32,000 bases of DNA from Sphingobacterium daejeonense (GCF_042678525.1 NZ_JBHTKY010000007.1), one strand, 5' to 3'. Shown: positions 6,342 to 24,751, numbered from the stretch's first letter. Numbers and translations: made by a program. Notes: generated from the letters alone by a model not told the origin.

Positions 6342-6409
6342 TAATATTATTTTAAATTACATTAATGGCTAAAAAGGGTAGGAAGGGGGCATAAAAAAAT
6401 ACCAAGCGA

Positions 6410-6490
6410 TCATTGCTTTTCCCTACGCCGGTTTTAACCGTATCAGGTTCAAAGGGACTCTCTCAATTCTTTTCAGAATACCCCTAAAGC
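6410..6490 (-). promoter_or_regulatory. TPP (THI-box) riboswitch in the leader of thiM-thiE-thiD-tenA
   Basis: The minus-strand sequence reads AGGGGTATTCTGAAAAGAATTGAGAGAGTCCCTTTGAACCTGATACGGTTAAAACCGGCGTAGGGAAAAG. This contains the conserved CUGAGA, ACCCUUUGAACCUGAU-like and GCGUAGGGAA elements of the THI element, about 70 nt upstream of the thiM ATG. Confidence 0.85.
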
Positions 6491-6549
6491 CAAATCAAAG
6501 ATAGCCTAAACAATCTGCAAAGTCAAATTATAAAGGCTATCTCGAATTC

Positions 6550-8241: not shown

Positions 8242-10610
8242 TACTTACTAAGATTCTGTATAGCTTCCTTGAGAAGGTTTTCAACTTCAGTTTTTAATTC
8301 CTTGTTTTTGATTTTTAAGAGCTGTTTGTCTGTAATTTCAACTAATCTTTGGCCAATTAATTTTGTGTCAGGATTACTGCTGAAATAATTGGCAACCATC
8401 GCTCGTGCCAATGGATGATAATCATAAGTTACTGCCAATAACTGCAAATTAGCCTCATTCTTGATCGGATAATTCTTCTTCAAAACATCCGTGATTTTTT
8501 CATTTGAACTCGGAGAAACAGTTCTTAAGAATGGGTCTTCAAAATACCAAGTGTTATAGTCTCCTGTGCTGTCGGTATAATTTAAGATAGCTCCAGTCTC
8601 ATTATCATATTTCTTGCCATAAAATTTTTCCAAATCCCTTGCCAATTGTTCTTTTGACATACTTACTTGCCCTGGCGTTTCCCAAACATGGATTGCCATT
8701 CCATTAACCAAAGACTCCACAGTCATAATCTGTTTATCACCTGGCATAATATAGATGCCATCGAATTTTTGATTGATAAACGGCATCGTTAGAATATTCC
8801 CTGATTTTGCATCAACGACTTTTGCGGCAAAAGCAAATCTCTCACCATCATCCTGAACAAAAATCTTTGAATCATCATCCGAAAAGTGGAAATATTGCGT
8901 AAACCTACTGATCCGAATATTTTGGCCGAAGGATTTTTTGGTTTCCAAATTCCAAAGTCGCATGTGTGTAGCATCTTCAGATAAGGCCATTACGTTCCCC
9001 TCGTTATTGAAAACTATAAACGGCGCTGCAATGGTCTTAACCTGAAATATTGGTTTATAATCTGAAGTTTTCAAAACTTTCGCATCTCCACTTTTGCTGA
9101 TGATAACCAAGTATTCGCTAGTTGGACTAAAAGCGCCACTATTAATGGTTTCTTTTCCCTCGGCTAAGACTTTCTTGGATGCAATATCCATGATGGACCA
9201 GCCATCAGGTTTCACCATCACCACGGTTTTGAAATCTGGACTTACAGTAAACCCAGGAATATCTTGGTCAATCGCAAAATTAAGAGTCTGTTTACCGGTA
9301 GCAATATCCCAAGCAGCGAAACTTTTATTGCTTGTCCTGGCCATAACTTCGGTTTCGTCCTTATTGAAGATGTAAGTTTTTACTTGGGAATCAAATGGCT
9401 TCCCAACAGGTTTGCCATTGCTGGCATCAAAGAAATAGGTTTTGCCACTTATTCCCTTGACCAATATCTTTTTACTTTTTTGAAGAACTAAAAAAAGTGC
9501 TATTTCTTCTGGAATCTTGACGAACTCATTGTTTTTTTGACCTGTCTTTAAGTTCAACTTTGCCAACGCGGGTTTGCCCTTATATCTTAAAAATGCTTCA
9601 TCATTTGTGATTCCAGGATGGGCATGTGACAATCCTCCTTCTTCATAATATTGAGCCACCCTTAATGGGGTGGTGTTTTTGTTTTCTATAAATGTTTGCG
9701 AATTATTACTCACTAGATATTGGGACCAGTCGGGCGATGTTGCATCTTCGTCACTAGGATCCTTTTCCATCATTTTCATCAAGTCTGTCAAGAAGAAGAT
9801 ATTCCGCGGTAATTCTGTGTTCTTTAATGTAGATCCATTATTGGTATTCACCTGTACAATCTGAGCTTCATCACCGATATATAAATTACCATTGTCAGTG
9901 AATCCCACAAACTTGATGTAAAATGGACCAGGTAAAAACCAATTGATACCGTTGCTTTTATTAAAATAATATAAGCCTTCAGAATTACGAAAAGCAATTT
10001 GATTGCCATCCTTGCTAAAGGCAGGAGGGTTTGAACCCAATTTGGTCGACTTTTTGAAAATTTCCTTTGGTATATCGGTTGCCAAATCATAGATAGTCAA
10101 TTCATTACCTTCACTCAAGCTACGGCTGATATACAAAGTTTTTGAAGTCTTGTCAAAATAAGCTGATGTAGGGACCAGTTGATCATTTTTGATCAATATT
10201 TGCTCCTGTTTGGTTACTGTATTAAAAAAAATAACATCTTTTGATTGTTTGTTGATGACTATGAATTTAGAATCTGGAGAAATGGCGGTAAGTGAAATAA
10301 AACTACTATCAAGATTAGGACGAAGGATATCTTTTTTATCATTAGCCATATTATATCTGACGATTTCAAGATCAGAATTGACTACATAAGCATTGTCTTT
10401 CTCGTCAAATTGGGGGAATCGAGGCTGGTTAGAAGATATATCATCTCTTTGTACCAACTGTTTTCTGGTTGTTGCATCCCATACTTGCAATACATTGCTA
10501 TTGTCTCCAGCACTAGCAAATCCAACAATCCATTTACCATTGGGCGAGAATCTAATGCCGCCAAAATTTATATTGGGCATTCTGATCAAATCTTCTTGTA
10601 CCGCTAACAT
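8241..10610 (-). CDS. WD40/PD40-like beta-propeller repeat protein (789 aa), no signal peptide
   Basis: Recurring blade signatures: IRFSPNGKWIV...VWD, ISPDSKFIV, FSKDGNQIAF, VSPDFKTVV, FSPTSEYLV, HFSDDDSKIFV. The last ~170 aa are non-repeat. It starts at an ATG that overlaps the stop of the TIR ORF. Confidence 0.8.
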   Translation of the reverse strand: MLAVQEDLIRMPNINFGGIRFSPNGKWIVGFASAGDNSNVLQVWDATTRKQLVQRDDISSNQPRFPQFDEKDNAYVVNSDLEIVRYNMANDKKDILRPNLDSSFISLTAISPDSKFIVINKQSKDVIFFNTVTKQEQILIKNDQLVPTSAYFDKTSKTLYISRSLSEGNELTIYDLATDIPKEIFKKSTKLGSNPPAFSKDGNQIAFRNSEGLYYFNKSNGINWFLPGPFYIKFVGFTDNGNLYIGDEAQIVQVNTNNGSTLKNTELPRNIFFLTDLMKMMEKDPSDEDATSPDWSQYLVSNNSQTFIENKNTTPLRVAQYYEEGGLSHAHPGITNDEAFLRYKGKPALAKLNLKTGQKNNEFVKIPEEIALFLVLQKSKKILVKGISGKTYFFDASNGKPVGKPFDSQVKTYIFNKDETEVMARTSNKSFAAWDIATGKQTLNFAIDQDIPGFTVSPDFKTVVMVKPDGWSIMDIASKKVLAEGKETINSGAFSPTSEYLVIISKSGDAKVLKTSDYKPIFQVKTIAAPFIVFNNEGNVMALSEDATHMRLWNLETKKSFGQNIRISRFTQYFHFSDDDSKIFVQDDGERFAFAAKVVDAKSGNILTMPFINQKFDGIYIMPGDKQIMTVESLVNGMAIHVWETPGQVSMSKEQLARDLEKFYGKKYDNETGAILNYTDSTGDYNTWYFEDPFLRTVSPSSNEKITDVLKKNYPIKNEANLQLLAVTYDYHPLARAMVANYFSSNPDTKLIGQRLVEITDKQLLKIKNKELKTEVENLLKEAIQNLSK

Positions 10611-11575
10611 GGAATGAGCAATAAGGCTGCGCTTTCATCGCCCCGGCGTGTAGCTTCGGCAATATAAGCTGCACCGTCACCATACTCACTCTCCGTAAGC
10701 TTGTTTATTCCTGATGCATATAATGATTTTGCTAAATTTTTCAAGGCTGAATTCCTTTGATTCCATGCGAAGATGCCCGCCAATATTGCAATGACTCCTA
10801 ATGCCCCAATTGCTGTTGCAATCCTTTTGATATTCCTGTTTTTCTGCTTTATTTTTTCTAATTGATAGGCTTGGTCTCGTTTGGTTAATTCTGCCAATGG
10901 CACACCTAAGATTCCAGAAATAATCTTTAACAATGCAAGGTCGAGTCGTTTTTTGTATTCATCGACCAATCCTTTTATTTGATGATTTGGTGTACCTTTA
11001 TCATGCAAATATCTTCTGTATCCTTCTGCTGAGGTGAACCCTTCTTCTTGCGTGTTTGGAATTCTGACATCTGCAGCCAATACTTCCTCGGGTTGATCAT
11101 AAAGGATTTTTCCAGTTTCGTCAATGTTATACCTCAACTCATCAGGAAAACATTGGGCATCGGTATTTTCCTTACCATATTCTGGTTCGCCTTTTATGAT
11201 CAGAGCGATAATTTTTTGAGATTTTCCAGTTTGCTTAAAATATTTAAGTTCATCCCGTACATAAGTTGATCTTGCTGATTTGGGAGAACTCAAATAAATA
11301 AGGAATTCAGAACGGTCTAAGGCTGATGTTAAGGAACCACTAAGGCTAGAACTAGCTGATAATTCTTTTTCATCTTGAAAAACAGGATATATCTGCCTGG
11401 GGATTTCTTCGCCGGCAGCATTCTTCTTTCCAATTAAATCCTCGGGGATTTCATAAGTTTCTAATGCATGATGCAACCAATCTGCCCACTTTCTGCCTTC
11501 CCCTTGATTGTCACTATGGCTATAACTAATAAATGCTTTGTATTTTTTTGTTAGGTCCTGATCTTGATTTTCCAT
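10604..11575 (-). CDS. TIR domain protein with one C-terminal TM helix (possibly the N-terminal part of a split TIR-TM-propeller gene)
   Basis: TIR_2-like motifs: KAFISYSHSD, YPVFQDEKEL, FLIYLSSPKSARSTYVRDELKYF (Glu in the position of the NADase catalytic Glu). TM helix IATAIGALGVIAILAGIFAW (aa 252-271), followed by only 52 aa. There is a 7-nt overlap (ATGTTAG) with the next ORF. Confidence 0.8.
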   Translation of the reverse strand: MENQDQDLTKKYKAFISYSHSDNQGEGRKWADWLHHALETYEIPEDLIGKKNAAGEEIPRQIYPVFQDEKELSASSSLSGSLTSALDRSEFLIYLSSPKSARSTYVRDELKYFKQTGKSQKIIALIIKGEPEYGKENTDAQCFPDELRYNIDETGKILYDQPEEVLAADVRIPNTQEEGFTSAEGYRRYLHDKGTPNHQIKGLVDEYKKRLDLALLKIISGILGVPLAELTKRDQAYQLEKIKQKNRNIKRIATAIGALGVIAILAGIFAWNQRNSALKNLAKSLYASGINKLTESEYGDGAAYIAEATRRGDESAALLLIPC

Positions 11576-11826
11576 AAATACAATTTTTGGTTGAGTTGTC
11601 GATTTTCAATAGACAAAAACCAAACCTTTTTCTATAAATTTTAATAAAGAGTGATAAAAAACTGTTTAGTATTTAATTTGATTAAGAAAAAATCAATAAT
11701 TTTTAATTGATGTTATAACGTTATTTCAACTATTTTAAAAATTATGTAATCATTTTCGAACAGGCAGTTGAACAATTTCGGAAGGATTTTTTCTTATTGT
11801 CCTGAATGCTGTTTAATATACTCTTA

Positions 11827-11980
11827 TTCCACTCTTGTTCCACTCTCGTTCCACTCTGAGTCTTCTTTCCTTCGGACCTCGTTCGGACCTTGTTCGGGTG
11901 TTTTCCGAAGCAGCTCCGAACGAGGTCCGAACAAAGTCCGAACAAGAGACGAAGGAGAGTGGAAGGAGGTAGGAAGGAGA
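11827..11980. repeat. 11-nt periodic tandem repeats arranged as a long imperfect palindrome
   Basis: TTCCACTCT at 11827, 11838 and 11849 (period 11). TTCGGACC at 11871 and 11882, plus TTCGG at 11893 (period 11). These are then mirrored as CCGAA 11905 and 11916, GGTCCGAA 11924, AGTCCGAA 11935 and AGAGTGGAA 11956. There is a perfect 16-bp arm pair: TTCGGACCTCGTTCGG (11871-11886) with CCGAACGAGGTCCGAA (11916-11931). Confidence 0.85.
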
Positions 11981-12027
11981 ATAGCAGAAACCTTGCAGAC
12001 TTGGAGGCCACGATGGCCATTGTTGCT

Positions 12028-12064
12028 GTTCCTGGTCGCCATGGTTGGTGTCGTTACCAACCAT
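12028..12064. repeat. Partial copy of the hairpin repeat family (GTTCCTGGTCGCC + ATGGTTGGT/ACCAACCAT hairpin)
   Basis: GTTCCTGGTCGCCATGGTTGGTGTCGTTACCAACCAT. It has the same leader and stem as the copies at 12095-12167 and 12496-12570, with a different loop. Confidence 0.8.
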
Positions 12065-12094
12065 CAATCGACGCCATGGCTGGTATCATTGTTG

Positions 12095-12167
12095 CCCATG
12101 GTTTTTGGCAGCACGAAAGGGGTATGGTATCCCTGGACGCCATGGTTGGTGTCCTCACCAACCATCT
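12095..12167. repeat. Dispersed ~75-nt repeat, copy A, ending in the 10-bp hairpin ATGGTTGGTG-TCCT-CACCAACCAT
   Basis: CCCATGGTTTTTGGCAGCACGAAAGGGGTATGGTATCCCTGGACGCCATGGTTGGTGTCCTCACCAACCATC. It aligns colinearly with copy B at roughly 80 percent identity (by eye), and the terminal hairpin (12142-12165) is identical. Confidence 0.85.
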
Positions 12168-12495
12168 TCATCTGATCTAACTTTCACTAATGAATAATGC
12201 CATTTCATGGCAAGATGCAGTTACTTTTGAGGCGCAAAAGTAACCAAAACGCTTGCTCATTTAAGGTGGCTTGTCGCACAAGTCCAACGCACATGGACAA
12301 AAATGCCTTATTGCCGAGGATGCCGTTCTAATCAATTATCTCTTTTGAGGAGATAATTGCTTGAAAGCATCCAAGGGCAAGGCAGACGCACAGAGGCCGC
12401 GGCATTTTTTCCATCTTTCCGCCACTGAAAATGAGCGGGATTCGGCTTCGAATAAACAATTGGGTTGCAAAACGTCAGGGTTGGTGTTCCTGGTC

Positions 12496-12570
12496 GCCAT
12501 GGTTGCTGGCAGCTCGAAAGCCATGGATGGTGTTCCTGGTCGCCATGGTTGGTGTCCTCACCAACCATCA
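12496..12570. repeat. Dispersed ~75-nt repeat, copy B, ending in the 10-bp hairpin ATGGTTGGTG-TCCT-CACCAACCAT
   Basis: GCCATGGTTGCTGGCAGCTCGAAAGCCATGGATGGTGTTCCTGGTCGCCATGGTTGGTGTCCTCACCAACCATC, with the hairpin at 12545-12568. Confidence 0.85.
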
Positions 12571-12630
12571 TTTTTGATAGTCTACGTTGCACTAGGTGAC
12601 CTTGGATTTTTAGTGGCAGGTGGGGACACC

Positions 12631-12712
12631 TGCCACGGCGAGCAGAGACACCTGCCTCCGCTACCAGACACTACTGCCACGGCGAGCAGAATCTCCTGCC
12701 GCGGCGGTTAGG
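12631..12712. repeat. Two tandem ~44-nt units sharing the core TGCCACGGCGAGCAGA...CCTGCC
   Basis: TGCCACGGCGAGCAGA occurs at 12631-12646 and 12675-12690 (spacing 44). Both are followed by NNNNCCTGCC. They are preceded by the hairpin GGCAGGTG-GGGA-CACCTGCC (12615-12634). Confidence 0.8.
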
Positions 12713-13514: not shown

Positions 13515-13548
13515 AAAGGAGCAGATTTTCTGCTCCTTTTTTATTTTA
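13515..13548 (+). terminator. Rho-independent terminator retained after the efflux-gene remnant
   Basis: GGAGCAGA (13518-13525), loop TTT, TCTGCTCC (13529-13536), followed by TTTTTTATTTT. Confidence 0.75.
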
Positions 13549-13765
13549 AAGTTTTCAGGAAAACGCCGTATCGGTTGAATACTAAGCTCTTATAGAGATA
13601 ATCAAAGAAGTCAGGTAACGATTTGGTAACGGTGCTTATTGCTTTGTTTTTCAACGTGTTTCCGTTAGTTCATAGCAAATATAAATAATTTTAGACCATA
13701 GTTAATAATCCATTTTTTTTTTTATTTAAAAAAAATTAAACTAACCTTTTTAATACAAACACCAA

Positions 13766-16700
13766 CTAAACTCTTGTCATTCGTTGTGATTCTATTTTAT
13801 TAATATCTTGTATTGTTATGTCGTTTATATTTACCATCTTCTCAAGATGTCCACGGTTTAGTAGCTTAATGTTGTTTGACTTTGCTAATATCGTTGCCGA
13901 TGAGCTGTAATCATTGTTGGTTATGGTCAGTAAGTTGAATTGTTCTTTAAATTTGTCCTCGTAGTAATTCTTTGCTGTACAAATTTCTTGTATTGCTTCG
14001 TTTCCAACCAATGATTTTGTTTGTTTGGCTTGTATAAGATAATTTTCTCCATTCTTCAAAACGACAACATCAACTCCTTTATCGTTGGAATATGGTGTAA
14101 GATAAACTTCAAAACCTTGTTTTTTGTATAATGCTGCAATTGTCGCTTTAAACAAGTTTGGATTCAATCGGTCTATGTCTGTAATTGTTTGAACCTTTGC
14201 TTTACTTTCTGTTTTTGTACCAAAAATGTTTCCAAATAATTCGTCTGGTGTCAATTCTGCTTGTTCGGTCGGGAACAATGTATTACTTGCCAAAGCTTTT
14301 TTATTATTCAATAAAGTGTCAAGAATTTCATCAAAGGATTTCAATCTGTTACCTTCTTCGTCTTTCATATCGTCAGGGAAAATAGCCATTGGATAATATA
14401 CGAATACATCTTTTTGTTGCCCTATTCTATAAGCTCTGTCCGTTGCTTGTTCCTCTTTTGCAGGATTCCAATGTCTTGTATAATGTACAATGTGGTTTGC
14501 TTTGGTTACGTTTAACCCCACACCTGCGGCAATAGGCGACATAATAATTACATTAAATCCATCCTCTGCTTGAAAACGGTCAATGGTTTGTTGTCTGCTT
14601 AATTTTGATTTTCCTTCAAGTTGCTTTGTAGTCGGTGTATCTCCGTTAATAATGCTGGTAAATATTCCGAAAGTGTCATAGACGATTTTTTGCAACATTT
14701 TTTGTGTTTCTCTTCTGTCTGCAAACAAAATCACTTTTTCGGCTTTTGATTGTATGTCAGCTAATACTCCAATTGTCGTTTGTAGTTTGGATGAACTTGC
14801 AATAAGTTCATCGCTTGTGAAATTCAAAATTTGACTTTCTAATAAAAATGGATGGTCAGAAATATCTCTAACTGCCCAAAGTGATTTTAGTTTTTGATTT
14901 CTTTTTTCTACTCCTTCTAATTCGGAATTATTTGCCATTTCAATTTCCTGCATGTAGCGGTTTAATTGAATTGGTGGCATTACTTTCTTAATTCTTGATT
15001 TTTCGTTATCGTGTTTTGTTGGCAAATCTTTTGCTACATCTCTTTTCAATCTTCTTTTGATAAAAACGCCAATATTATTACGAAGCTGTTCTGTCAATGC
15101 TATAATGTCGGTGTTTTCATCACTCAATGGCTTTTGATATTCCTTCGCAAAGTCTTTTGCATTTCCTAAAAGTCCGGGAACTGCAAAGTCCATTAAACAC
15201 CAAATATCCACCAACGTATTTTCTACTGGAGTTCCTGTCATTGCAATTTTAAAATCTGCCTTTAAAGCTTTACTTGCATTGGTTATTTGTGTTCCTGGTG
15301 TTTTTATTTTTTGTGCTTCGTCCAGAGCTATTACTGCAAAATCAACCAGTCCCAAACTAATTTGATGCGACCTTACTGTTTCGTAGTTGGTTAAAATTAT
15401 TTGTTTGAATTGTAATCGTTTAGCGTCTTGCTGATTTTTTGCTGGATTGTTTTCTTTTGTCAAAGAAACCGAACCATACAATTTGCACAATGGTAGATTT
15501 TGTGGACTGAAAAATTTCTGATATTCATTTTCCCAATTTTCGAGCAAGCTAACTGGTGCGACAATTAAATAAGGTTTGTTATCATCACAATGTTGGCAAT
15601 GCCATTCAAGAAAATACAATAATTGCAAAGTCTTCCCTAATCCCATATCATCAGCCAACAACCCACCTGCAAAGTTTTCTGTGAACAAGGATTGTAACCA
15701 GGAAATCCCTTCCTTTTGGTGTTCTTTTAAAGCAATCCCATTTTCCAAATTGGAAATGCTATAAAAGTTGTGTTTTAAGTTTTCGGGTAACTCATTTCCA
15801 TTTGAAAATTCAGTCAGTTCTGCATTTTCTTTAATTATAAGTACTTCGTGGTCTGTTTTCTTTTCTTGCTTTATAGGTTTATTTGGATTTTCAAATTGCT
15901 TCTTAGCGGTTTTAATAAATTTTTCAGCTTCTTCAATTGGTATTTCTGCATCTTCCCATTGAACTGTTTGCTTATTTTCCTTAACTGCATTCTCTTTTTG
16001 CTCTATGAAATTAGAGAGCTTTTCTTGTGACTTAAAATAGATTCTCTTTTCTCCGTGTACCTTGTCTTTTATTACAATTCCGGGAATCCATTGTGATTTA
16101 TAAGGACTTGCGAAAGGGTAAAACTTTGGACTGTAAATGCCAATTTCTTTTACTCTGTCACTATAAAAAACAGTAAAATCTACTTCCTCATCATTAAAGA
16201 ACAATTCAGGGTGTTCAATAATTTCTTGAATGTCGTTACGGTCTGAAACTTTTCTTTTCGCTTTTACTTTTTGAAGTTCTGTTTTTTGATTTTCAGAAAT
16301 CACTACTCTCGTTGTTTCGCCATTATTTCCCGATACTGGATAAACATCCCGAATCATCGGCAATTTATCAAACGTATTTGTAAAACCTATTGCGTTTTCA
16401 ATTTCTACAGAAGGCAAAATTTCAAGAACTCCATTGTTAAAATCAATGTCTAATTTTATTCTTTCAGGGATAAACAACTCTTGATTACTAAGAAATTGTT
16501 CTAATGTAGAACCACTTTGTTTTGATAATGATTTTAGTTCCGAAAGCTTTTTGAAATTGGTTACATTTCCTTTTTCATTTTCGGGTAAACTGTTGAATTC
16601 ATCAATTGCTTGACAAAGTAAAAATTGGTTTTCAGATAGTAAATATTCGCTCTCTTCAACTTTTATTAACGCTCCGTTTCTCGTTGTTTTTAATCTTGTT

Positions 16701-17038
16701 CCGTTAGGTGCAAAGTCATAAAATCCATATTTGAACTTAAATGAATTGTGAGTTAAAGTTCCGTCTGATTCTACAAAAATATCATACGGATAACTGTTTG
16801 GCAAATCCAATATTTGCTTATCAATATCGTTTAACCTTAAAATATAAATACTTTCAATTTTGCAAGATTTGTCTGTATAATCTGCTAATCCATTATCGTG
16901 TAATTCTGTAAGAATTGCAATTTGTGATAAAAATTCTGTTTGTAATTTCTCCCATTCTGAAACAGGAACTTTGCTTCCCGATTCGTTTAGGAAGTAAAAT
17001 GAAAATCTATTACTGTCGTATAAATATTTTAAAATCAT
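13766..17038 (-). CDS. SNF2-family helicase fused to a C-terminal Mrr-like PD-(D/E)xK restriction endonuclease domain; ~440-aa N-terminal domain of unknown function (ZorD-like)
   Basis: SNF2 motifs: GGLLADDMGLGKTLQLL (I), VIALDEAQKIKTPGT (II, DEAQ), AMTGTPVEN (III), GGVGLNVTKANHIVHYTRHWNPAKEEQATDRAYRIGQQKDV (V/VI). C-terminus: YKKQGFEVYLTPYSNDKGVDVVVLKNGENYLIQAKQTK matches the Mrr_cat pattern D-x-G-[IV]-D ... [IV]-Q-A-K. There is a 4-nt ATGA overlap with the upstream ORF. Confidence 0.85.
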   Translation of the reverse strand: MILKYLYDSNRFSFYFLNESGSKVPVSEWEKLQTEFLSQIAILTELHDNGLADYTDKSCKIESIYILRLNDIDKQILDLPNSYPYDIFVESDGTLTHNSFKFKYGFYDFAPNGTRLKTTRNGALIKVEESEYLLSENQFLLCQAIDEFNSLPENEKGNVTNFKKLSELKSLSKQSGSTLEQFLSNQELFIPERIKLDIDFNNGVLEILPSVEIENAIGFTNTFDKLPMIRDVYPVSGNNGETTRVVISENQKTELQKVKAKRKVSDRNDIQEIIEHPELFFNDEEVDFTVFYSDRVKEIGIYSPKFYPFASPYKSQWIPGIVIKDKVHGEKRIYFKSQEKLSNFIEQKENAVKENKQTVQWEDAEIPIEEAEKFIKTAKKQFENPNKPIKQEKKTDHEVLIIKENAELTEFSNGNELPENLKHNFYSISNLENGIALKEHQKEGISWLQSLFTENFAGGLLADDMGLGKTLQLLYFLEWHCQHCDDNKPYLIVAPVSLLENWENEYQKFFSPQNLPLCKLYGSVSLTKENNPAKNQQDAKRLQFKQIILTNYETVRSHQISLGLVDFAVIALDEAQKIKTPGTQITNASKALKADFKIAMTGTPVENTLVDIWCLMDFAVPGLLGNAKDFAKEYQKPLSDENTDIIALTEQLRNNIGVFIKRRLKRDVAKDLPTKHDNEKSRIKKVMPPIQLNRYMQEIEMANNSELEGVEKRNQKLKSLWAVRDISDHPFLLESQILNFTSDELIASSSKLQTTIGVLADIQSKAEKVILFADRRETQKMLQKIVYDTFGIFTSIINGDTPTTKQLEGKSKLSRQQTIDRFQAEDGFNVIIMSPIAAGVGLNVTKANHIVHYTRHWNPAKEEQATDRAYRIGQQKDVFVYYPMAIFPDDMKDEEGNRLKSFDEILDTLLNNKKALASNTLFPTEQAELTPDELFGNIFGTKTESKAKVQTITDIDRLNPNLFKATIAALYKKQGFEVYLTPYSNDKGVDVVVLKNGENYLIQAKQTKSLVGNEAIQEICTAKNYYEDKFKEQFNLLTITNNDYSSSATILAKSNNIKLLNRGHLEKMVNINDITIQDINKIESQRMTRV

Positions 17039-17868
17039 CCGAATACTTTTTTGTTCATCCAGCTATTAAATCTTGTTTCCCAAATTTGGTTACCATCTCT
17101 GTGCGTTAATCTCCCTTCATCGTTAAAGTAATCGTAGTAATTATCGCTATGAACTGCCATTGGCATAGAACCATTACGCAAGTCATCAACACTGTTTAGT
17201 TGGTAGTTTAAACTTGGTCTTAACGAGCTGTTGATTTTATAAGCATAGAAGGCGTAGCCTTCGTTGCTAAATTCAATCAACATATAATCGCCAATGTACA
17301 ATATGAATGCAGAAACATCTCTTTTGCTTGAAACTGTTTCAAATCTTGCATCTACATATTCGGCTATTCTTTCATCACGTTTTAATATGTTTTTTGTGTG
17401 AAGCGGTCCAAATACTTTAAAGGAAGATATTTTTGAAGCAAAACGAAGCCAAAATTTCTTTCGTCTTTCATCATTGATACAAACATTGAAAAACACATTG
17501 ATAAATTGTTGCGTAATCCACTCGTTCAAAATATTTCGTCCTTGAATTATTTCTCGCTTTTCGATTTCTGTTGCATTCTCAAATGCTGTCCAATTAGAAA
17601 TATTACTTGGGTCGCCAATTTGAGTGAAGGCTATTTTTTTTATTTTATCTTGTACTGTTGCAAATTGAGGTTGGTTTGCTTGGATGATAATTTTACTGAT
17701 TAACCTTTTACTGGTAACTGAACTGTTGTGTTTTTCCAAAACCTCATTTAGGTTTTCAACTTCATCGGCAATTTTGCTTTTGTTTCTTTCGTAATAAGTT
17801 ACAATAACTTTCGAGAAATATGGATAGTCGACCCGATTTCGAATTTCATAGCCAACTTTAAACGCCAA
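17035..17868 (-). CDS. Hypothetical protein coupled to the SNF2-Mrr gene; possible EH-signature (ZorC-like) domain; probably 5'-truncated
   Basis: The stop overlaps the SNF2 start (ATGA at 17035-17038). There is no ATG start: the first possible initiator is TTG at 17868-17866, with an in-frame stop 7 codons upstream. The C-terminal pattern YMLIEFSNEGYAFYAYK...GRLTHRDGNQIWETRFNSW has a conserved-looking Glu, then His 41 or 57 residues later, then aromatic residues. This is reminiscent of the EH-signature domain that partners SNF2 ATPases. Confidence 0.55.
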   Translation of the reverse strand: MAFKVGYEIRNRVDYPYFSKVIVTYYERNKSKIADEVENLNEVLEKHNSSVTSKRLISKIIIQANQPQFATVQDKIKKIAFTQIGDPSNISNWTAFENATEIEKREIIQGRNILNEWITQQFINVFFNVCINDERRKKFWLRFASKISSFKVFGPLHTKNILKRDERIAEYVDARFETVSSKRDVSAFILYIGDYMLIEFSNEGYAFYAYKINSSLRPSLNYQLNSVDDLRNGSMPMAVHSDNYYDYFNDEGRLTHRDGNQIWETRFNSWMNKKVFG

Positions 17869-17880
17869 TTCAAAAACACA

Positions 17881-18107
17881 AAGGGTTTAGGTCTGGGCAG
17901 GCTTTTCGGGGGCAAACCTGCTGAACCACCAAAGCAACCTGCCGAAAGCGTAATAGGTGCGACAAAAACGGTTATGCGTTCGGATTATAAAAATGCTGAA
18001 AACAATCAGACCGTACAGACTAATAAAAAGCCTGCTTTAAAAATGGACAATTCAAACAAAATACAACAGGCTCGTTCAAAAAACAAGAAACCAAAGTTGA
18101 GATTATA
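17881..18107 (+). pseudogene. 5'-truncated ORF remnant (Lys/Pro-rich C-terminal tail), likely leftover of a mobile-element gene
   Basis: An ATG-less open frame reads KGLGLGRLFGGKPAEPPKQPAESVIGATKTVMRSDYKNAENNQTVQTNKKPALKMDNSNKIQQARSKNKKPKLRL-stop. Its 5' side runs into the divergent 277-aa ORF, so the start and promoter are missing. Confidence 0.4.
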
Positions 18108-18208
18108 GCTGAGTATTTAGCATCTGAACGCCAAATGCAACCTTTGACTACAACAATACAATGATCTATGTGAATAGCTTTTATTTTCGAGGTTTAAATT
18201 ATACAGAT

Positions 18209-18475
18209 ATGGAAATAACAGTTTTAGACATTCAGATTTTAAAGGCATTGCATAGGGAAGTAAAGGAAGTTTCCAATTTGATAGCGGAAATAACTGCATC
18301 CTACAAAGCACTTCAACAGGCAACGAAATGGCTTGACCAGCAGGAAGCCTGCCAACTCCTCAATATCAGCAAAAGAAAATTGCAGACTTACAGGGCAAAG
18401 GGCATTCTCGGGGCAACGCAAATCAATCGGAAGACTTATTTCAGATTATCCGAAGTGGAGTTACTTATGCAGTGA
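18209..18475 (+). CDS. Helix-turn-helix (excisionase/MerR-like HTH_17) DNA-binding protein
   Basis: WLDQQEACQLLNISKRKLQTYRAKGILGATQINRKTYFRLSEVE is the typical Bacteroidota mobile-element HTH motif. The start is chosen at ATG 18209 (MEITVLD). The track ORF starts at 18161. Confidence 0.7.
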   Translation: MEITVLDIQILKALHREVKEVSNLIAEITASYKALQQATKWLDQQEACQLLNISKRKLQTYRAKGILGATQINRKTYFRLSEVELLMQ

Positions 18476-18550: not shown

Positions 18551-18832
18551 ATGAAACATATTGGAAATTCAAACGAGGATATGCTTGCACTGCTTGAAGC
18601 TGTGGTAGGCATCAAAAATGAACTGCTGTATATCAGGGAATATTTCCACCCATTGTTAAAAGGGGAAATCTACCTGTCAGGCGAACAGGTTTGTGAGATG
18701 CTTCACATCAGCAAGCGGACGTTGCAACAATACAGAGATGACGGACTGATACCTTTTATCAAGCTCGAACGGAAAATTCTTTTCCGTGAAAGTGATATTG
18801 TAAAAGTATTGGAAGATAATTATCAGCGTTAG
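18551..18832 (+). CDS. Helix-turn-helix (excisionase/MerR-like HTH_17) DNA-binding protein, paralogue of the preceding gene
   Basis: YLSGEQVCEMLHISKRTLQQYRDDGLIPFIKLERKILFRESDI has the same motif architecture as 18209..18475. Tandem pairs of such genes accompany Bacteroidota integrases. Confidence 0.7.
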   Translation: MKHIGNSNEDMLALLEAVVGIKNELLYIREYFHPLLKGEIYLSGEQVCEMLHISKRTLQQYRDDGLIPFIKLERKILFRESDIVKVLEDNYQR

Positions 18833-18836
18833 CCGA

Positions 18837-19646
18837 TTAAACCTCGTCATTTGCAAACCCCTTGTTGGTGACGAGTATTTTTTCAAAATAACGAATTGGA
18901 TTTGCCATTCCTCTAATTTTAGGAACTTCTTTATTCATATATATATCAAGAATTTCTTTTGAAGTAACTTCTGAACCTTCAAATCCCCATCTTTTAACAC
19001 CTCTATTTTCAATATCTTGAACCCATTTTTCAGGTTTAAATACCGCTCTTATTACGCCTTTATATTCTGCTAAAACAAAATCTGAATTTTCTGCTCTGTT
19101 TTTGTCTAATACCCACCACCCTCTGGTTGCTTCATAAATATTTGGTCTGTCATAAATTGGGTTCTCACTTTTCTTTTTTCGTTTATTATCGTATGTTTTG
19201 TTTATATTGATTACTAAAATGTTATGCTTAATATCTTCGTTTTTTAATACTTCACAATTGTAAAGTATTTCACACTCACTCACCGTTTTAATACCCTGAT
19301 TAAATGAATAATGTCCTGCAACAATATTTGAAATTTTCGCAATCTCCGCAAAATCCTTAAAAGTTAAAAAATCAATTAAAACAGATTCAACTATTAGCGC
19401 TTCATTTTCTTCTAATCCGTGTCTAACTATAAAGTGTTTTACTTTTAGATTTTCTAATTTAATCGCTCTAATAATCTCTAATTTTTCAGTTCCGCTTGGG
19501 TTGAATATCGCTTCATTAATATGAAAAAAAACACGATTCCCATAACCTTTTCCAACATAGAATATTTTGTTATCTCGTGGGTCTATTAGAATATAAACAT
19601 AAGATTTTAATTCTTCTTGTGCCTTTTGTGAAAATTGTTCAATCAT
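18837..19646 (-). CDS. GIY-YIG nuclease domain protein with an uncharacterised C-terminal domain
   Basis: The start is taken at ATG 19646 (MIEQFSQKAQEELKSYVYILIDPRDNKIFYVGKGYGNRVFFH, which is GIY-YIG motif Y-x-Y ... YVGKG). The 66 upstream codons of track ORF 18837..19844 cross a terminator hairpin and the integrase remnant. The C-terminal part (RGWWVLDKNRAENSDFVLAEYKGVIRAVF...KRWGFEG) is unassigned. Confidence 0.7.
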   Translation of the reverse strand: MIEQFSQKAQEELKSYVYILIDPRDNKIFYVGKGYGNRVFFHINEAIFNPSGTEKLEIIRAIKLENLKVKHFIVRHGLEENEALIVESVLIDFLTFKDFAEIAKISNIVAGHYSFNQGIKTVSECEILYNCEVLKNEDIKHNILVININKTYDNKRKKKSENPIYDRPNIYEATRGWWVLDKNRAENSDFVLAEYKGVIRAVFKPEKWVQDIENRGVKRWGFEGSEVTSKEILDIYMNKEVPKIRGMANPIRYFEKILVTNKGFANDEV

Positions 19647-19671
19647 ATTTTGTTGTTTTATTGACTTCAAA

Positions 19672-19708
19672 AATACAAAAAAGGCAATGCAGTTTCTTGC
19701 ATTGCCTT
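19672..19708 (-). terminator. Rho-independent terminator downstream of the truncated integrase copy
   Basis: AAGGCAATGCA (19681-19691), loop GTTTCT, TGCATTGCCTT (19698-19708). On the minus strand it is followed by TTTTTTG. Confidence 0.7.
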
Positions 19709-19731
19709 TCTTTAATCGCTTTAAATTGGTT

Positions 19732-20170
19732 TCAGAGTTGCGAAACAAAAGAGCGTTCCATACCCTTAAATTTATGTGAAACCTTTTGCATATCCTTTCC
19801 GACTTTCTCGTTGAGTATCTTGGCGTAAATCTGTGTGGTGGCAATATTCTTATGCCCTAACATCTTGCTCAAACTCTCCAACGGAACGCCCTCGCTCAAA
19901 AACAACGTAGCAAACGTATGTCGTGCCAAATGAAAGGTTACTTTCTTTTCTTTCAAGCAGTCGATTTGTTCGGATATCGCACTTAATCTATCGTTGCAGT
20001 AGCTGTTAGACGGAACAGGAAAAACCTTGCCGTCCTTTGAAAATCCTGCATATTTTTCGATAATCATTTTTGGAATATCCAACAGCATTACATTGGATGA
20101 TGTTGCTGTCTTTTTCCTACGTACAATAATCCACTGGTTGCCGTCAAAGAATTCCTGAATATTGCTATTT
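19732..20170 (-). pseudogene. Truncated tyrosine integrase (3' third only), diverged paralogue of the intact integrase at 23325..24575
   Basis: 19729-20170 aligns colinearly with 23322-23765, with about 24 mismatches by hand alignment (~94-95 percent). The 118-aa translation differs from the intact copy at 2 residues (LSAISEQ vs LSTISKQ) and keeps the catalytic-region motifs HLARHTFAT and GHKNIATTQIY. Homology stops abruptly at about 20170. Confidence 0.85.
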
Positions 20171-20564
20171 TACTCATTTAAGGTCTTGTTTTATCAACCA
20201 CTAAATTACAAAAAAGCCAACGGAAAAAACATTCACGTTTCTGCAATGTCAAACTCTCTTTTATCTTGACTATTAGTGCTTAAAAGTAACTTGTATTGGA
20301 TCCAACACAATTGTGGATACAGTGCGTGCACATTCTCAAATCTACGGTAAAACAGTCTATAAAGGATTATTTGTCCTGTGGAAAAACAACTTCCGACCTC
20401 GGGTTATAGTTGTTGTAGGTTGAAAACGTACTTTTTAAAGTGAAATTGGTATCTTTTTTGTTGTGGCTATATGATTAATAATCAAAGTTTTAATTGGTAA
20501 TATACTTTTAGTCCTTACCATACCACTATAAAAAAGAGTAATTAATAACGATTTATACTTTACC

Positions 20565-21524
20565 ATGAAAAGAAGTTATTTTGTTTACGTCATTCAGGTC
20601 AGTCTCATTTCAATATTATTTTTGTCTTGTACCAAAAACGATGATAAGGACGATGGAGGCAGCCTAGCCCTGACAGGTCATATTTACCATCAATACACCT
20701 CCGATGTAATGAAAATTGATATGCGAACGGGGCAGGAAACAAGCTTTTTTTCCTATAGCGCCTATAGTACGGTGGGCTGGGATTTGAGCAGAGATGGAAA
20801 ACTCCGTATTGTCTCCACGAGAGAGCCAGGGACATATGACCGTAATCTCTTTACCATTGTAAACACGGCAAATGATCAAATTATCAAATCATTTGAATAC
20901 GTTCCACGCAACGGGAACAGCATCAGAAATACGGGTAAAATTTCATTTGACAACTCGATGATTCTGGTCGCTCCAGATGCTGATAATGGGATAACCATTA
21001 TGGATATGGATGGTGATATCAAATATGAGATGACCGGAATCGGAGATGAACCCTTCTCAACAAGCGACGATGCGTATTGGTTGCCTGATAATAATATTTT
21101 GGTTCGCTTTCAAAACAAGCTTCTAAGATCTGCCCCACCTTATAATAACCTGACGTTGGTGAAAGAGATGAATTACGAAAAATGGGGAAATGTAAGGATA
21201 AGCAACAATGGACAGAAAATCAGCATGTATATCAATAAACATATCTTTTTGATGGATGCTAACGGAAGTAACCTTGTGCAGGTTACCGATAGTAATGGAG
21301 ACGAAGCATTCGGTGAATTTTCCCCTGATGATAAATTTTTACTGGTCGGCTCGGATTATTTCCATGCACCGGCATCCGGGAACAGCCATTGGTTCCTGAA
21401 GGTTATCCCAGCAGACGGCAAAAAATACAATATGGATTCCGGCCCGGAAGTTATTTCCGTAATACCGACCGGAGAAACATCGATTGTCCGGGCAAATGGG
21501 ACAACAGTATGGCGACAACAATAG
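20565..21524 (+). CDS. Lipoprotein with PD40/TolB-like beta-propeller repeats
   Basis: Lipobox ILFLSC followed by TKNDDKDDGG. Repeats of the type SRDGKLRIVS, ISNNGQKISMY...MDANGSNLVQVT and FSPDDKFLLVGSD. Confidence 0.65.
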   Translation: MKRSYFVYVIQVSLISILFLSCTKNDDKDDGGSLALTGHIYHQYTSDVMKIDMRTGQETSFFSYSAYSTVGWDLSRDGKLRIVSTREPGTYDRNLFTIVNTANDQIIKSFEYVPRNGNSIRNTGKISFDNSMILVAPDADNGITIMDMDGDIKYEMTGIGDEPFSTSDDAYWLPDNNILVRFQNKLLRSAPPYNNLTLVKEMNYEKWGNVRISNNGQKISMYINKHIFLMDANGSNLVQVTDSNGDEAFGEFSPDDKFLLVGSDYFHAPASGNSHWFLKVIPADGKKYNMDSGPEVISVIPTGETSIVRANGTTVWRQQ

Positions 21525-21528
21525 TTTT

Positions 21529-22218
21529 TTAATTGGCCACAGGTTCGACCAAAGCCAACATAGCTGACACCGCATCATGACTGTTCATCGGTTCTGGAGC
21601 GATTGCTTCATGTTCAGGATTTGAAGCGGGGCCAAAAGTTCCGGACAATGCAATCACTTGGTTGTCCTGATTATTGATATGGGCAAGCCTAATGTACAGC
21701 TCGTACCGCCAATCACCTTTTTCATTATTCCTGTAACGCAGGGCAAATACGTTCTCATAAGGCGCTTTCCCTAATCTTCCATCAGCAACTTCCTCCATAT
21801 CGGAGAACATTGCCAATATCTCATCCTTTGTATCTTTTCCCATTCCAGTCTGTGCCTTAATGGAACGCCAACCATATACATAATCATTAATGTCTTTTTT
21901 AAAATTGACTGTATAATAATAGATATGCGGTATTGCCGGATAATTTCCTTCATTTGTGAAATTACCTTCTCCCTGTATCTCGTATCCCTGCATATGTTCT
22001 CCAAGCAAGTTTGCAACTTGATTAGCTGTAACAAGATGTTTCAACCGAACACCCGAACCTGATGTTTCTGTTGGCTCTTTATCGTCATTCGTACTACAAG
22101 CACACAGTAGTGTAAGTACCACTAACGAAAATGACAAAACCAATAGCTTGTTAAGTCTGGTAAAGATTGTTGGTATCATAGTATATTTCCTGCTTTCAAC
22201 ATTCATAATATTTATCAA
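21529..22218 (-). CDS. Hypothetical lipoprotein
   Basis: Signal/lipobox LVVLTLLCAC followed by STNDDKEP. The start is either ATG 22218 (4-nt overlap with the OmpA-like gene) or the internal Met at 22179 (MIPTIF). No recognisable domain. Confidence 0.55.
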   Translation of the reverse strand: MINIMNVESRKYTMIPTIFTRLNKLLVLSFSLVVLTLLCACSTNDDKEPTETSGSGVRLKHLVTANQVANLLGEHMQGYEIQGEGNFTNEGNYPAIPHIYYYTVNFKKDINDYVYGWRSIKAQTGMGKDTKDEILAMFSDMEEVADGRLGKAPYENVFALRYRNNEKGDWRYELYIRLAHINNQDNQVIALSGTFGPASNPEHEAIAPEPMNSHDAVSAMLALVEPVAN

Positions 22219-23234
22219 AGTTTTACAAGTTCTACTCTTCTGTTTTTGGCTTTGTTTTCCTCCGAATCATTGGCAAACAAGGGGTTTTCTGCTCCGAACC
22301 CTTTAGCGGTCAAACGGGATTTATCTATCCCTGCGGTGATTAAAAATTGCATAACAGCGTTTGCTCTATTGTCGGAAAGTTTTTTATTATGTGCCGTATC
22401 ACCGGTATTATCGGTATGCCCTTCGATAGCAATTTTTAAAGAAGCGTCCTGTTGCAATGCTTTCGCGATTTGGTCTACTACTTCTTTTCCATCAGGCTTA
22501 ATGTCGGATTTATCTATGTCAAAATTGATATAAAGAATCGATTTACCTTTCTCGTTTAAGTCTTTTACAATATCGTCTGATGTGATTTTCTTTATGGTTT
22601 GCTTAAAAGCTTTTTCCTGTACAATTTGTATGGAAGTACTGCTCCCTCCACCTTTTTCCATAGCAATATAAACATTACCATCATTTCTTCTGATCACATA
22701 CATTGCAACTACCTCGTTCCAAACATCTAAGCTACCATTGCTTCCTCCATAGGTGGCAAGTTCCTTATATTTGTCTTTTTGTTCCTTTGTTAAGTTCCCT
22801 TCAAAAACCTTTAATCCTCCAGCATTTAAAATCGCATCCTCAAAACTTTTATTTAAATATCTCCCGCTTATTTCAACATCGCTATCCCTGTCTTTGTGAA
22901 CGTGGGATCTAAAAGTTTTTCCTTCAACTTCATAGATACTGTCAGGCGTAACGAATACGATAAAATCAAAATCCTTTACTTTTGGTTTGTTGATGTATTT
23001 AGCACCTTCCGGAGCGGTGAAAAATGGAAAATCTCCAATGGCTTCTGTGGAAATCGGTATAGTATTAATATCAAATTTAGTATCTTTTGAAGTAAGGTTC
23101 TCCTCAGCATTATTCTCTGATTTCACATCAATGGTTTCTTGTTTGCCCGTTTGTTTTTCTTCATTTTTATTGTTATTACATGCGAACAATAATTGGGCTA
23201 CTAAAAATGCTAAAAAAGTCTTTTTCATAATCAA
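22215..23234 (-). CDS. OmpA-family (peptidoglycan-binding C-terminal domain) lipoprotein
   Basis: Lipobox LLFAC. The C-terminus IAIEGHTDNTGDTAHNKKLSDNRANAVMQFLITAGIDKSRLTAKGFGAENPLFANDSEENKAKNRRVELV is a canonical OmpA_C domain. Confidence 0.85.
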   Translation of the reverse strand: MIMKKTFLAFLVAQLLFACNNNKNEEKQTGKQETIDVKSENNAEENLTSKDTKFDINTIPISTEAIGDFPFFTAPEGAKYINKPKVKDFDFIVFVTPDSIYEVEGKTFRSHVHKDRDSDVEISGRYLNKSFEDAILNAGGLKVFEGNLTKEQKDKYKELATYGGSNGSLDVWNEVVAMYVIRRNDGNVYIAMEKGGGSSTSIQIVQEKAFKQTIKKITSDDIVKDLNEKGKSILYINFDIDKSDIKPDGKEVVDQIAKALQQDASLKIAIEGHTDNTGDTAHNKKLSDNRANAVMQFLITAGIDKSRLTAKGFGAENPLFANDSEENKAKNRRVELVKL

Positions 23235-23324
23235 TTCAATGTTATAAATATTACTAAATAGCTAAAATACAAAAAAAAGCCAACGTAAAATAACATTGAC
23301 TTTCTTTAATCACATTATTAGTTT

Positions 23325-24575
23325 TCAGAGTTGCGACACAAAAGAGCGTTCCATACCCTTAAATTTATGTGAAACCTTTTGCATATCCTTTCCGACTTTC
23401 TCGTTGAGTATCTTGGCGTAAATCTGAGTGGTGGCAATGTTCTTATGTCCTAACATTTTGCTCAAACTTTCAAGCGGAACACCCTCGCTTAAAAACAACG
23501 TAGCAAACGTGTGACGTGCCAAATGAAAGGTTACTTTCTTTTCTTTCAGGCAGTCGATTTGTTTGGATATTGTACTTAATCTATCGTTGCAGTAGCTGTT
23601 AGACGGAACAGGAAAAACCTTGCCGTCCTTTGAAAATCCTGCATATTTCTCAATAATCATTTTTGGAATATCCAACAGCATTACATTGGATGATGTTGCT
23701 GTCTTTTTCCTGCGCACAATAATCCATTGATTGCCGTCAAAGAACTCCTGAATATTGCTGTTTTTAAGTCCTTTCATATCCGAATAGGACAGCCCTGTAA
23801 AGCAACTGAAAACAAACAGATCTTTAACCAACTCATCTTTCTTTTTCTCACAGTTGAATGTTACAAGCTGTTCCAACTCGTTCCGCAACAAATAACCACG
23901 GTCTTTGTCCTTTTTAGTATTCTTGTACTCGCTGAACGGATTAAAAGCAAGATGCTTTCTGCTCATTGCCAATCGGCAAAGCGTGGTAAATCCAATCATA
24001 TACAGCCAAATGGTATTGTGTGTCAAACTTTGGTCGTCACGTAGATAATAATCAAAGTCCTGTACAAAATAAGGTGTAAGGTCGTTAAAGGACACATCGG
24101 AATAGCCGTATTTTGTAAGTGCAAAATTTCGCAGGTGTTTTAAAAGTATTTTGTATTTACTGCATGTGCCATTTACCCGAAGTCCGCTGTTTACCTTTTT
24201 TTCATAGTCGGACAGGAACTGTTCATAGAATTTGAAAAAGGTAAGCTCTCCGCTTTCCATACCAAGAAAAGCATTTTTAAGCTTAGCACTACTTACAGCC
24301 CCCTCGTTTTTCAGGATTTTGGAATAACATTCCTCGATACCCGAACGAATTTTGTCAAGTTTGCTGTTTGTGTCCTGGGCTTCTCGGCTTTTACCTAAAA
24401 CCCTGCCGTACTTCAAATCCCAATTTGATGCAGAAATATCCAGCTTGGTACTGAATGCAGACTGTTTACCGTTTACGGTAACCCTGCATATAACCGTAAC
24501 TTTTCCGTTCTTCTTCGGGGCGTTCTTTTTAAGGTAGAAAAGCACCTTAAATGTTGATTTTTTTGTCGTTTCCAT
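23325..24575 (-). CDS. int: Site-specific tyrosine recombinase (Bacteroidota integrase with N-terminal arm-binding domain)
   Basis: The start is taken at ATG 24575 (METTKKSTFKVLFYLKKNAPKKNGKVTVICRVTVNGKQSAFSTK, the typical Arm-DNA-binding N-terminus). The track ORF starts 22 codons earlier. Catalytic region: HLARHTFATLFL, LLGHKNIATTQIYAKI. Confidence 0.9.
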   Translation of the reverse strand: METTKKSTFKVLFYLKKNAPKKNGKVTVICRVTVNGKQSAFSTKLDISASNWDLKYGRVLGKSREAQDTNSKLDKIRSGIEECYSKILKNEGAVSSAKLKNAFLGMESGELTFFKFYEQFLSDYEKKVNSGLRVNGTCSKYKILLKHLRNFALTKYGYSDVSFNDLTPYFVQDFDYYLRDDQSLTHNTIWLYMIGFTTLCRLAMSRKHLAFNPFSEYKNTKKDKDRGYLLRNELEQLVTFNCEKKKDELVKDLFVFSCFTGLSYSDMKGLKNSNIQEFFDGNQWIIVRRKKTATSSNVMLLDIPKMIIEKYAGFSKDGKVFPVPSNSYCNDRLSTISKQIDCLKEKKVTFHLARHTFATLFLSEGVPLESLSKMLGHKNIATTQIYAKILNEKVGKDMQKVSHKFKGMERSFVSQL

Positions 24576-24751
24576 ACTCACAATTCTTAATGATAAAATT
24601 AAACTTATGTGAGCCACGGAACAATATGAAAAATTGAGCAAAAAGCTGAAATACAGTATTTTGAAGCGATTGTTTCCGATGTTTAAAAGTAACGTTTTAG
24701 TAACCTTACTTTTGCTAATCGTTGCTTTTTCCTGCTTTTTACCTCATTACC

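Follow-up and report, generated by a model that had tools for sequence, protein, structure and literature searches.

A 32 kb stretch of Sphingobacterium daejeonense DNA (hereafter the window, in which all positions are counted) contains two overlapping open reading frames (ORFs) on its minus strand, of 1090 and 277 codons, whose extents and ATGA overlap had been correctly set out in a preliminary description of this DNA. The first, at 13766..17038, starts with ATG and is an intact zorD gene, whose product joins a ZorD-specific N-terminal region to an SNF2 ATPase and a C-terminal Mrr-type nuclease. The second, at 17035..17868, starts with TTG, overlaps zorD by 4 nt (GG-ATGA-TT) and encodes the C-terminal 264 residues of a 471-residue ZorC protein bearing an EH signature, preceded by 13 foreign codons. 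Both are genes of type I Zorya (zorABCD), a defence system reportedly defined by Doron et al. in 2018. We consider it very likely that the locus is the distal half of such a system, carried as cargo by a Bacteroidota integrative mobilizable element (IME) in the Sphingobacterium chromosome, and that an internal deletion has broken it and most likely left it inert.

Domain searches with the 1090-residue protein returned the Pfam families SNF2-rel_dom (residues 440-730, E 8e-53), Helicase_C (759-873) and Mrr_cat (955-1068, E 1e-18), in agreement with the SNF2 motor and C-terminal Mrr nuclease previously noted. The corresponding motifs can be read directly off the protein (GLGKT at 466, DEAQ at 573, TGTPVEN at 601, QATDRAYRIGQ at 864, DKGVDVVV at 986 and IQAKQ at 1002), with motifs I, II, III and VI and the Mrr D...QxK signature all intact. 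The PADLOC ZorD1 model PDLC00631 aligns with residues 9-1079 (E = 0, 1352 bits; model positions 8-1070 of 1071). The N-terminal ~440 residues, which the preliminary description had called unassigned, fall inside this match even though they carry no Pfam domain; because the model is matched from end to end, they can be identified as ZorD-specific sequence. The best match in the PDB is Escherichia coli ZorD (8qy7; residues 290-925, E 3.5e-133), and the Mrr_cat domain of ZorD from the window's clade lies beyond the region aligned with the E. coli protein. The SNF2 ATPase core is shared with DpdE of the Dpd 7-deazaguanine system, DrmD of DISARM and BrxH of BREX. PADLOC models for DpdE (up to 458 bits) and DrmD (82 bits) match residues ~340-925 at scores far under that of ZorD1, matches to these three families cover neither the N-terminal ~280 residues nor the Mrr domain, and no dpd, drm or brx partner genes occur in the window. 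A SNF2-family ATPase/nuclease of ~1100 residues encoded after zorC, as is characteristic of type I Zorya, is hence present in full.

The 277-residue product tells a different story. Its Pfam EH_Signature match (E 3.7e-20), which bears out the EH assignment made earlier from a Glu...His...Trp pattern, spans only profile positions 183-423 of 423. All PADLOC matches are to ZorC1 models, and the best PDB match is the solved structure of E. coli ZorC (8r68), with the Glu of IEFSNEG aligned to Glu400 of the E. coli EH motif. The EH residues E392, H448 and W456 (471-residue numbering) are retained, and the ZorC match, like that of ZorD, is far beyond chance. Searching databases with the protein yielded 484 relatives, almost all 468-481 residues long, the best of them 97% identical and covering only 95% of the query; full-length relatives of the fragment have 471 residues, compared with 560 for ZorC in E. 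coli. Five shorter ZorC matches were inspected and proved to be contig-end fragments that continue with normal ZorC sequence. ZorC homology begins at residue 14 of the ORF, and ZorC from an intact cassette is matched in the window over residues 208-472 only (tblastn). Thus, comparison with intact cassettes by blastn and tblastn places the zorC 3' fragment, codons 208-471 plus the stop, at 17035..17829 on the minus strand, with its ATGA overlap with zorD conserved; of a full-length EH_Signature protein, residues 208-471 of 471 are what the window holds. The remaining 5' end of the ORF (17830..17868, minus strand; TTG and 12 more codons, MAFKVGYEIRNRV) is not Zorya sequence but the antisense of a mobile-element gene, the same stretch being homologous on the plus strand to the IME backbone. 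An in-frame stop at 17887-17889 lies 6 codons upstream of the TTG, and the preliminary description was accordingly right that the partner gene lacks both an ATG and its upstream region.

No ZorA, ZorB or ZorC N-terminus could be found anywhere in the 32 kb by tblastn, in line with the absence of zorAB reported before. The ZorA of the nearest intact cassette gave a best E value of 4.1, and PADLOC scans of neighbouring ORFs contained no ZorA match; ZorB reached E 0.007 at best, only on the OmpA domain of a 339-residue lipoprotein. This OmpA-domain protein (22215-23234) was considered as a displaced ZorB and rejected: ZorB models match its generic OmpA domain (residues 236-337) and nothing else, it has a lipoprotein signal, and it belongs to a cargo module that adjoins the integrase in a related locus (L059). 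A 229-residue ORF at 21529-22218 was likewise rejected as the missing ZorC N-terminus, having no PADLOC or Pfam match and no ZorC similarity by tblastn. The window therefore holds neither of the two motor genes that membership in type I Zorya requires, zorA, whose product is a membrane protein resembling MotA/ExbB and drawn out into a long cytoplasmic tail, and the neighbouring zorB, whose MotB-like product has a TM/plug segment at its N-terminus and a domain that binds peptidoglycan.

We examined what lies upstream of zorD in related loci, pooling 27 loci from a metagenome scan with ZorD with those found earlier and treating as informative the loci with at least 3.6 kb upstream of zorD (24 loci, about 20 of them distinct), the others being cut by contig ends. 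All four genes, zorB, zorA, zorC and zorD, are present in every one of the 24, and none lacks zorAB, which leaves the window as the only exception. This answers the question, raised in the preliminary description, of whether MotA/MotB-like genes precede the pair in homologous loci. The order in the window's clade is zorB-zorA-zorC-zorD, with a ZorB of 240 residues (PADLOC ZorB, 272 bits) and a ZorA of 511 residues (PADLOC ZorA, 126 bits); the expectation of zorC' followed by zorD held, whereas that of zorA-zorB at the head of the operon did not. Complete cassettes of the same Bacteroidota subfamily (Chryseobacterium sp. GCA_031986365, locus L002, with L085, L088 and L097) share with the window 92-93% DNA identity over 13774-17829, a ZorD of 1090 residues that is 91-96% identical and the same 4-nt zorC/zorD overlap. 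They differ from it in having zorB (240 residues), zorA (511-535 residues) and a full zorC (471 residues) upstream, and in sitting elsewhere, beside restriction-modification (RM), GmrSD or type I RM genes. In blastn comparisons with the complete cassettes L001/L002 (Chryseobacterium sp.) and L085, the 92-93% identity breaks off at exactly 17829.

Several features of these relatives merit mention in their own right. Within the Bacteroidota subfamily (L001 7745-14685; L085 325-7337; L088-L104), the PADLOC models that give ZorA and ZorB their highest scores are of type II, those for ZorC and ZorD of type I; in the more distant L107 and L108, zorA comes before zorB. Some cassettes are mosaic: in L089 the ZorC (8203-9609) is 56% identical to that of L001, while ZorB is 96% and ZorD 89% identical, and a second case occurs in L093 (2379-3791), which suggests that zorC alleles have been exchanged by recombination within cassettes that are alike in other respects. 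In L086 (4651-7838), zorD is split into two ORFs of 65 and 952 residues, reflecting either a frameshifted gene or an error in an assembly of 2.7x coverage.

The point at which Zorya homology stops, 17829/17830, is also the point at which a second gene has been cut. On the plus strand, 17830..18108 is the 3' fragment (last 92 codons plus stop) of an IME backbone ORF of ~126 residues (ORF126; MAQKV...QS/DPISNF...), the first ~32 codons of which are deleted; tblastn finds only residues 32-126 of its product in the window. Among 80 related IME loci, similarity to the window starts at 17829/17830 in 53 (at 17818 in some), and these same 53 loci stay conserved with each other further to the left of the break. 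At the joint, then, codon 208 of zorC runs straight into the interior of a gene of the IME backbone, and the parental sequences have at most 1 nt in common there. Since zorC and the IME ORF are both cut at the same point, the joint is a two-sided truncation. Insertion of a whole element into zorC, as an alternative to a deletion, was rejected on this ground, since the joint has cut into a gene of the element as well; moreover, the element's end block lies beyond zorD, and its other end abuts lacI rather than the 5' half of zorC.

Conserved sequence marks both sides of the element that surrounds the remnant. Beginning 75 bp past the zorD stop, a conserved block of ~150 bp (13541..13690) is 83-93% identical in 7 other IME loci, with sharp edges and unrelated flanks on both sides; as it occupies the outer edge of the cargo region in all seven, it is a probable end of the element (the left end, or att-proximal arm). 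At the opposite side, a full-length tyrosine integrase (23325..24641, minus strand; Pfam Arm-DNA-bind_5, Phage_int_SAM_5 and Phage_integrase) is followed by the limit of the conserved IME sequence at ~24847, abutting the stop codon of a lacI-family gene, and similarity to L028, L012, L059 and others stops at 24841-24856. The integrase and the conserved sequences that mark either end are thus in place, and core genes of the window (YceI, LacI, ThiD) fall in Sphingobacterium clusters. In relatives, the genes to the left of ORF126 are DUF3408, MobC_2 and a MobA/VirD2 relaxase, followed by variable cargo (MmeI-type and type I/IIG restriction genes); tblastn detects no DUF3408, MobC_2 or relaxase in the window, which consequently lacks the mobilization module. 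The window element is a deletion derivative of an IME, and the earlier suggestion of a decayed Zorya remnant riding on an integrative element is borne out, with zorC' and then zorD lying inside a Bacteroidota IME.

An intact counterpart of this arrangement exists in two metagenome contigs, L101 (Ga0302347_1001205) and L100 (Ga0256410_1000535), where HTH2, HTH1, DUF3408, MobC, relaxase, zorB, zorA, zorC, zorD and the 150-bp end block follow one another in the order and orientation that a deletion model needs. The window shares with them the HTH_17 gene pair, the 150-bp block directly after zorD, and the orientation. It differs in that DUF3408, MobC, relaxase, zorB, zorA and a full zorC are kept in both contigs between the HTH genes and zorD; by comparison, ~7 kb is missing from the window between zorC codon 207 and the IME ORF. 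Their ZorD is only 78% identical to that of the window, their backbone between the HTH genes and DUF3408 is different, and ORF126 is not detectable in them. IME-borne Zorya in intact form came from the metagenome scan only, there being no Zorya within 10 kb in any of 80 IME loci from species-representative genomes.

These comparisons are most simply accommodated by one internal deletion of ~7 kb, with no more than 1 nt of microhomology, which would have joined zorC codon 208 to about codon 33 of the IME gene; we infer a single event rather than several steps. Such a deletion would have taken zorB, zorA and zorC codons 1-207 together with the mobilization module (relaxase, MobC and DUF3408), leaving zorD intact and zorC cut short at its 5' end, with a TTG that serves as a start by chance, and ZorD would have been deprived of any partner able to recruit it or lift its repression. 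As the same deletion removed relaxase, MobC and DUF3408, the element can probably no longer be mobilized; its integrase and HTH_17 genes are kept.

What is known of Zorya function bears directly on the state of the remnant. In the E. coli type I system, for which structures of ZorD (8qy7/8qyc) and ZorC (8r68) are available, ZorA5B2 is a proton-driven motor that senses phage-induced perturbation of the envelope, and through the ZorA tail the motor brings in and activates ZorC, which binds DNA, and ZorD, an ATP-dependent nuclease subject to autoinhibition, whereupon incoming phage DNA is degraded (Hu et al., Nature 2024, PMC11946911). In the same study, ZorC and/or ZorD gave no protection without ZorAB, full-length ZorD was autoinhibited, removing ZorC's N-terminal helices abolished defence, and E. 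coli deletions were not complemented by zorC or zorD of Pseudomonas aeruginosa, implying specific contacts between ZorAB and its effectors (PMC11946911). A second study saw no detectable DNA-targeting activity when the effectors were expressed without ZorAB, which indicates that their recruitment or activation depends on it (PMC11890865). The window shares with type I Zorya the SNF2-type ATPase/nuclease with its DEAQ box, the EH signature on ZorC and the translational coupling of zorC and zorD; it differs in having no zorA, no zorB and none of the first 207 zorC codons, and so does not constitute a system. The remnant is most likely inert in defence, because the sensor and activator are gone and ZorC is without its N-terminal ~44%. 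In sum, the locus is a known system, type I Zorya of a subfamily already represented in PADLOC, in degraded form.

The zorD gene itself shows no decay. Its reading frame contains neither a stop nor a frameshift, its product is 94% identical from end to end to the ZorD of L001, a complete system, and its ratio of nonsynonymous to synonymous substitution rates (dN/dS) against relatives, 0.06, is the same as that among intact systems. Changes specific to the window lineage number 30 nonsynonymous and 106 synonymous, compared with 11/67 and 18/84 in two relatives, and 6 private changes fall at columns invariant in 15 relatives, against 0-56 in those relatives themselves, none of the 6 lying in a catalytic motif. 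By these three measures (dN/dS, lineage-specific changes and private changes at invariant sites) there is no signal of relaxed selection. Because the zorD reading frame has not decayed, the deletion seems recent when set against the ~7% by which the window and its nearest relatives have diverged. The same statistics cannot separate a recent deletion from continued selection, however, as most of the divergence probably predates the deletion.

Several observations weigh against an inert remnant left by one deletion. Continued selection on an orphan zorD would likewise yield a perfect ORF of 1090 codons in which every motif is present and damaging changes are not in excess. The dependence of the effectors on ZorAB was established with E. 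coli and Pseudomonas systems rather than with the Bacteroidota clade of the window, which has a shorter ZorA (511 residues), a shorter ZorC (471 residues) and a C-terminal Mrr domain on ZorD. Our view covers 32 kb of the genome, such that a second zorAB could lie elsewhere. The joint is known from this single assembly, with no match in the metagenome scan and a ZorD cluster of one. Lastly, the closest intact IME-borne Zorya (L100/L101), at only 78% identity in ZorD, can stand as a model for the ancestral state but is not the actual ancestor.

An orphan full-length ZorD, with or without the EH-containing ZorC fragment, might have been kept for an activity independent of ZorAB, either as a self-contained SNF2-Mrr restriction-like nuclease or as an effector in trans for another motor. 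We judge this improbable; were it true, the effectors of Zorya would have become uncoupled from their sensor in Bacteroidota. In its trans form, the idea holds that a ZorAB, complete or partial and encoded at another site in the same genome, recruits ZorD and perhaps the ZorC fragment too, so that the remnant would still contribute to defence, a reading to which we also assign little likelihood. Nothing supports it directly; zorD is intact, and related IMEs are multi-copy in some Sphingobacterium genomes (four loci in S. alimentarium), making a second Zorya element conceivable. Given that P. aeruginosa zorC and zorD fail in E. coli, though, such a partner would have to be a close relative, any complete Zorya in residence would supply zorC and zorD of its own, and the frequency of Zorya near sampled IME loci (0/80 within 10 kb) offers it no encouragement.

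Still less likely, and rejected here, is the proposal, put forward in the preliminary description as a distinct SNF2-Mrr system, that a short EH partner and an SNF2-Mrr ZorD form a functional two-gene nuclease-helicase pair that defends without ZorAB. The intact zorD with statistics resembling purifying selection, the preserved ATGA coupling and the retention of E392, H448 and W456 are all compatible with such a pair, but its partner is a deletion chimera whose start is an accident of the joint (a TTG that opens 13 codons of antisense origin, with a stop 6 codons upstream), and the selection statistics mostly reflect divergence that came before the deletion. No relative is built in this way: every relative with enough upstream sequence is a four-gene locus (24/24), a ZorD that has a short partner and no zorAB is seen in 0/24, and the short ZorC matches inspected end with their contigs. 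The joint has 0 matches in metagenome contigs and is found in no other assembly, the window ZorD forms a singleton cluster, and no exact copy of it is on record among the called genes of assemblies. The failure of ZorC/ZorD to protect without ZorAB, the autoinhibition of ZorD and the loss of function on deleting the ZorC N-terminus (PMC11946911) argue against this pair as well. The outcomes that the preliminary description had said would tell against its reading of the locus did not arise: EH similarity is present, homologues of the SNF2-Mrr gene do have ZorC beside them, and the locus does not amount to any known system in complete form. Least probable of all is an assembly artefact, a chimeric or collapsed contig masking a complete cassette in the real genome; the joint is indeed unique to this assembly, but its sides have at most 1 nt in common and no repeat on which an assembler could go astray, they are collinear stretches of a single element type and oriented as a simple deletion demands, and the coding frames are otherwise clean on both.

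As a broken type I Zorya copy that is recognisable and, by our reading, recently damaged, the locus carries little weight for the discovery of new biology. It does provide a clean example, resolved to the base pair, of how the defence cargo of a mobile element can decay, with one illegitimate deletion apparently hitting both the defence system and the mobilization module, and it shows that a widespread Bacteroidota IME family carries Zorya in the cargo bay between relaxase and end. It also counsels caution in annotation, as an intact ZorD accompanied by an EH_Signature match should not be scored as a Zorya system; a defence-system finder would call the locus incomplete.

The remainder of the element comprises backbone genes and further cargo. 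Two HTH_17 (excisionase-like) genes of the IME backbone lie on the plus strand at 18161-18475 and 18551-18832, and the protein encoded by the first has counterparts in 80 loci at 82-96% identity across Flavobacteriia, Sphingobacteriia and Chitinophagia. Next to them, at 18837..19844 on the minus strand, is an apparently intact cargo gene for a GIY-YIG protein (Pfam LEM-3_GIY-YIG), which matches the PADLOC candidate defence gene PD-T4-3 (E 1e-46); it sits between the HTH_17 pair and an integrase fragment, and the HTH-HTH-PD-T4-3-integrase arrangement recurs in L028 at 94% identity. The fragment belongs to a duplicated integrase 3' end (19700..20171, minus strand), a direct repeat 95% identical to 23294-23765 that includes a 118-codon piece at 19732-20088. 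This duplicate of ~470 bp separates two stacked cargo modules, the second of which (20565..23234) consists of a 319-residue ORF on the plus strand and, on the minus strand, the 229-residue lipoprotein and the 339-residue OmpA-domain lipoprotein discussed above, none of them ZorB. Each module occurs singly in a relative, PD-T4-3 beside the integrase in L028 and the 319-residue/229-residue/OmpA lipoprotein module beside it in L059 (95.5% identity), and their stacking looks as if two related elements had recombined inside the 3' end of the integrase gene. A search for short direct repeats between the IME ends, as expected of attachment (att) sites, gave matches of 7-14 nt, at chance level, and a sigma-70 scan upstream of the remnant found 14 sites where 19 are expected by chance, using a model that does not cover Bacteroidota promoters.

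Across the wider family, the backbone (HTH_17 pair, ORF126, DUF3408, MobC and relaxase) is 80-95% identical over many genera in three Bacteroidota classes (L005-L084), and a single genome can hold up to four copies (Sphingobacterium alimentarium). The defence cargo in the bay beyond the relaxase varies, including MmeI-type RM, type I/IIG RM and an AAA_13 ATPase. Judged from these sequences, the IME is a broadly promiscuous family of defence-carrying elements.

Elsewhere in the window, an ~1-kb non-coding stretch at 11740-12710, with 47% G+C compared with ~36% around it, is packed with repeats: 11-nt tandem units arranged as an imperfect palindrome with 79-nt arms (11819-11983), four copies of a 56-nt unit with a GGTTGGTG...CACCAACC hairpin, and, at 12625-12706, tandem units of 22 nt. 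Rfam returned no match for this stretch. An ordinary thiamine pyrophosphate (TPP) riboswitch (Rfam RF00059, 73.7 bits) lies at 6403-6495 on the minus strand, upstream of a thiM-thiE-thiD-tenA operon. Beside this thiamine operon and outside the IME, three overlapping genes on the minus strand (6550-11575) encode a TIR-domain protein with a C-terminal transmembrane segment (323 residues), a WD40/beta-propeller protein (789 residues) and a protein with TrkA_N and RyR domains (563 residues). PADLOC matched no model to the trio except for two marginal matches on the TIR protein, and the three genes may form an uncharacterised TIR-based defence or signalling module.

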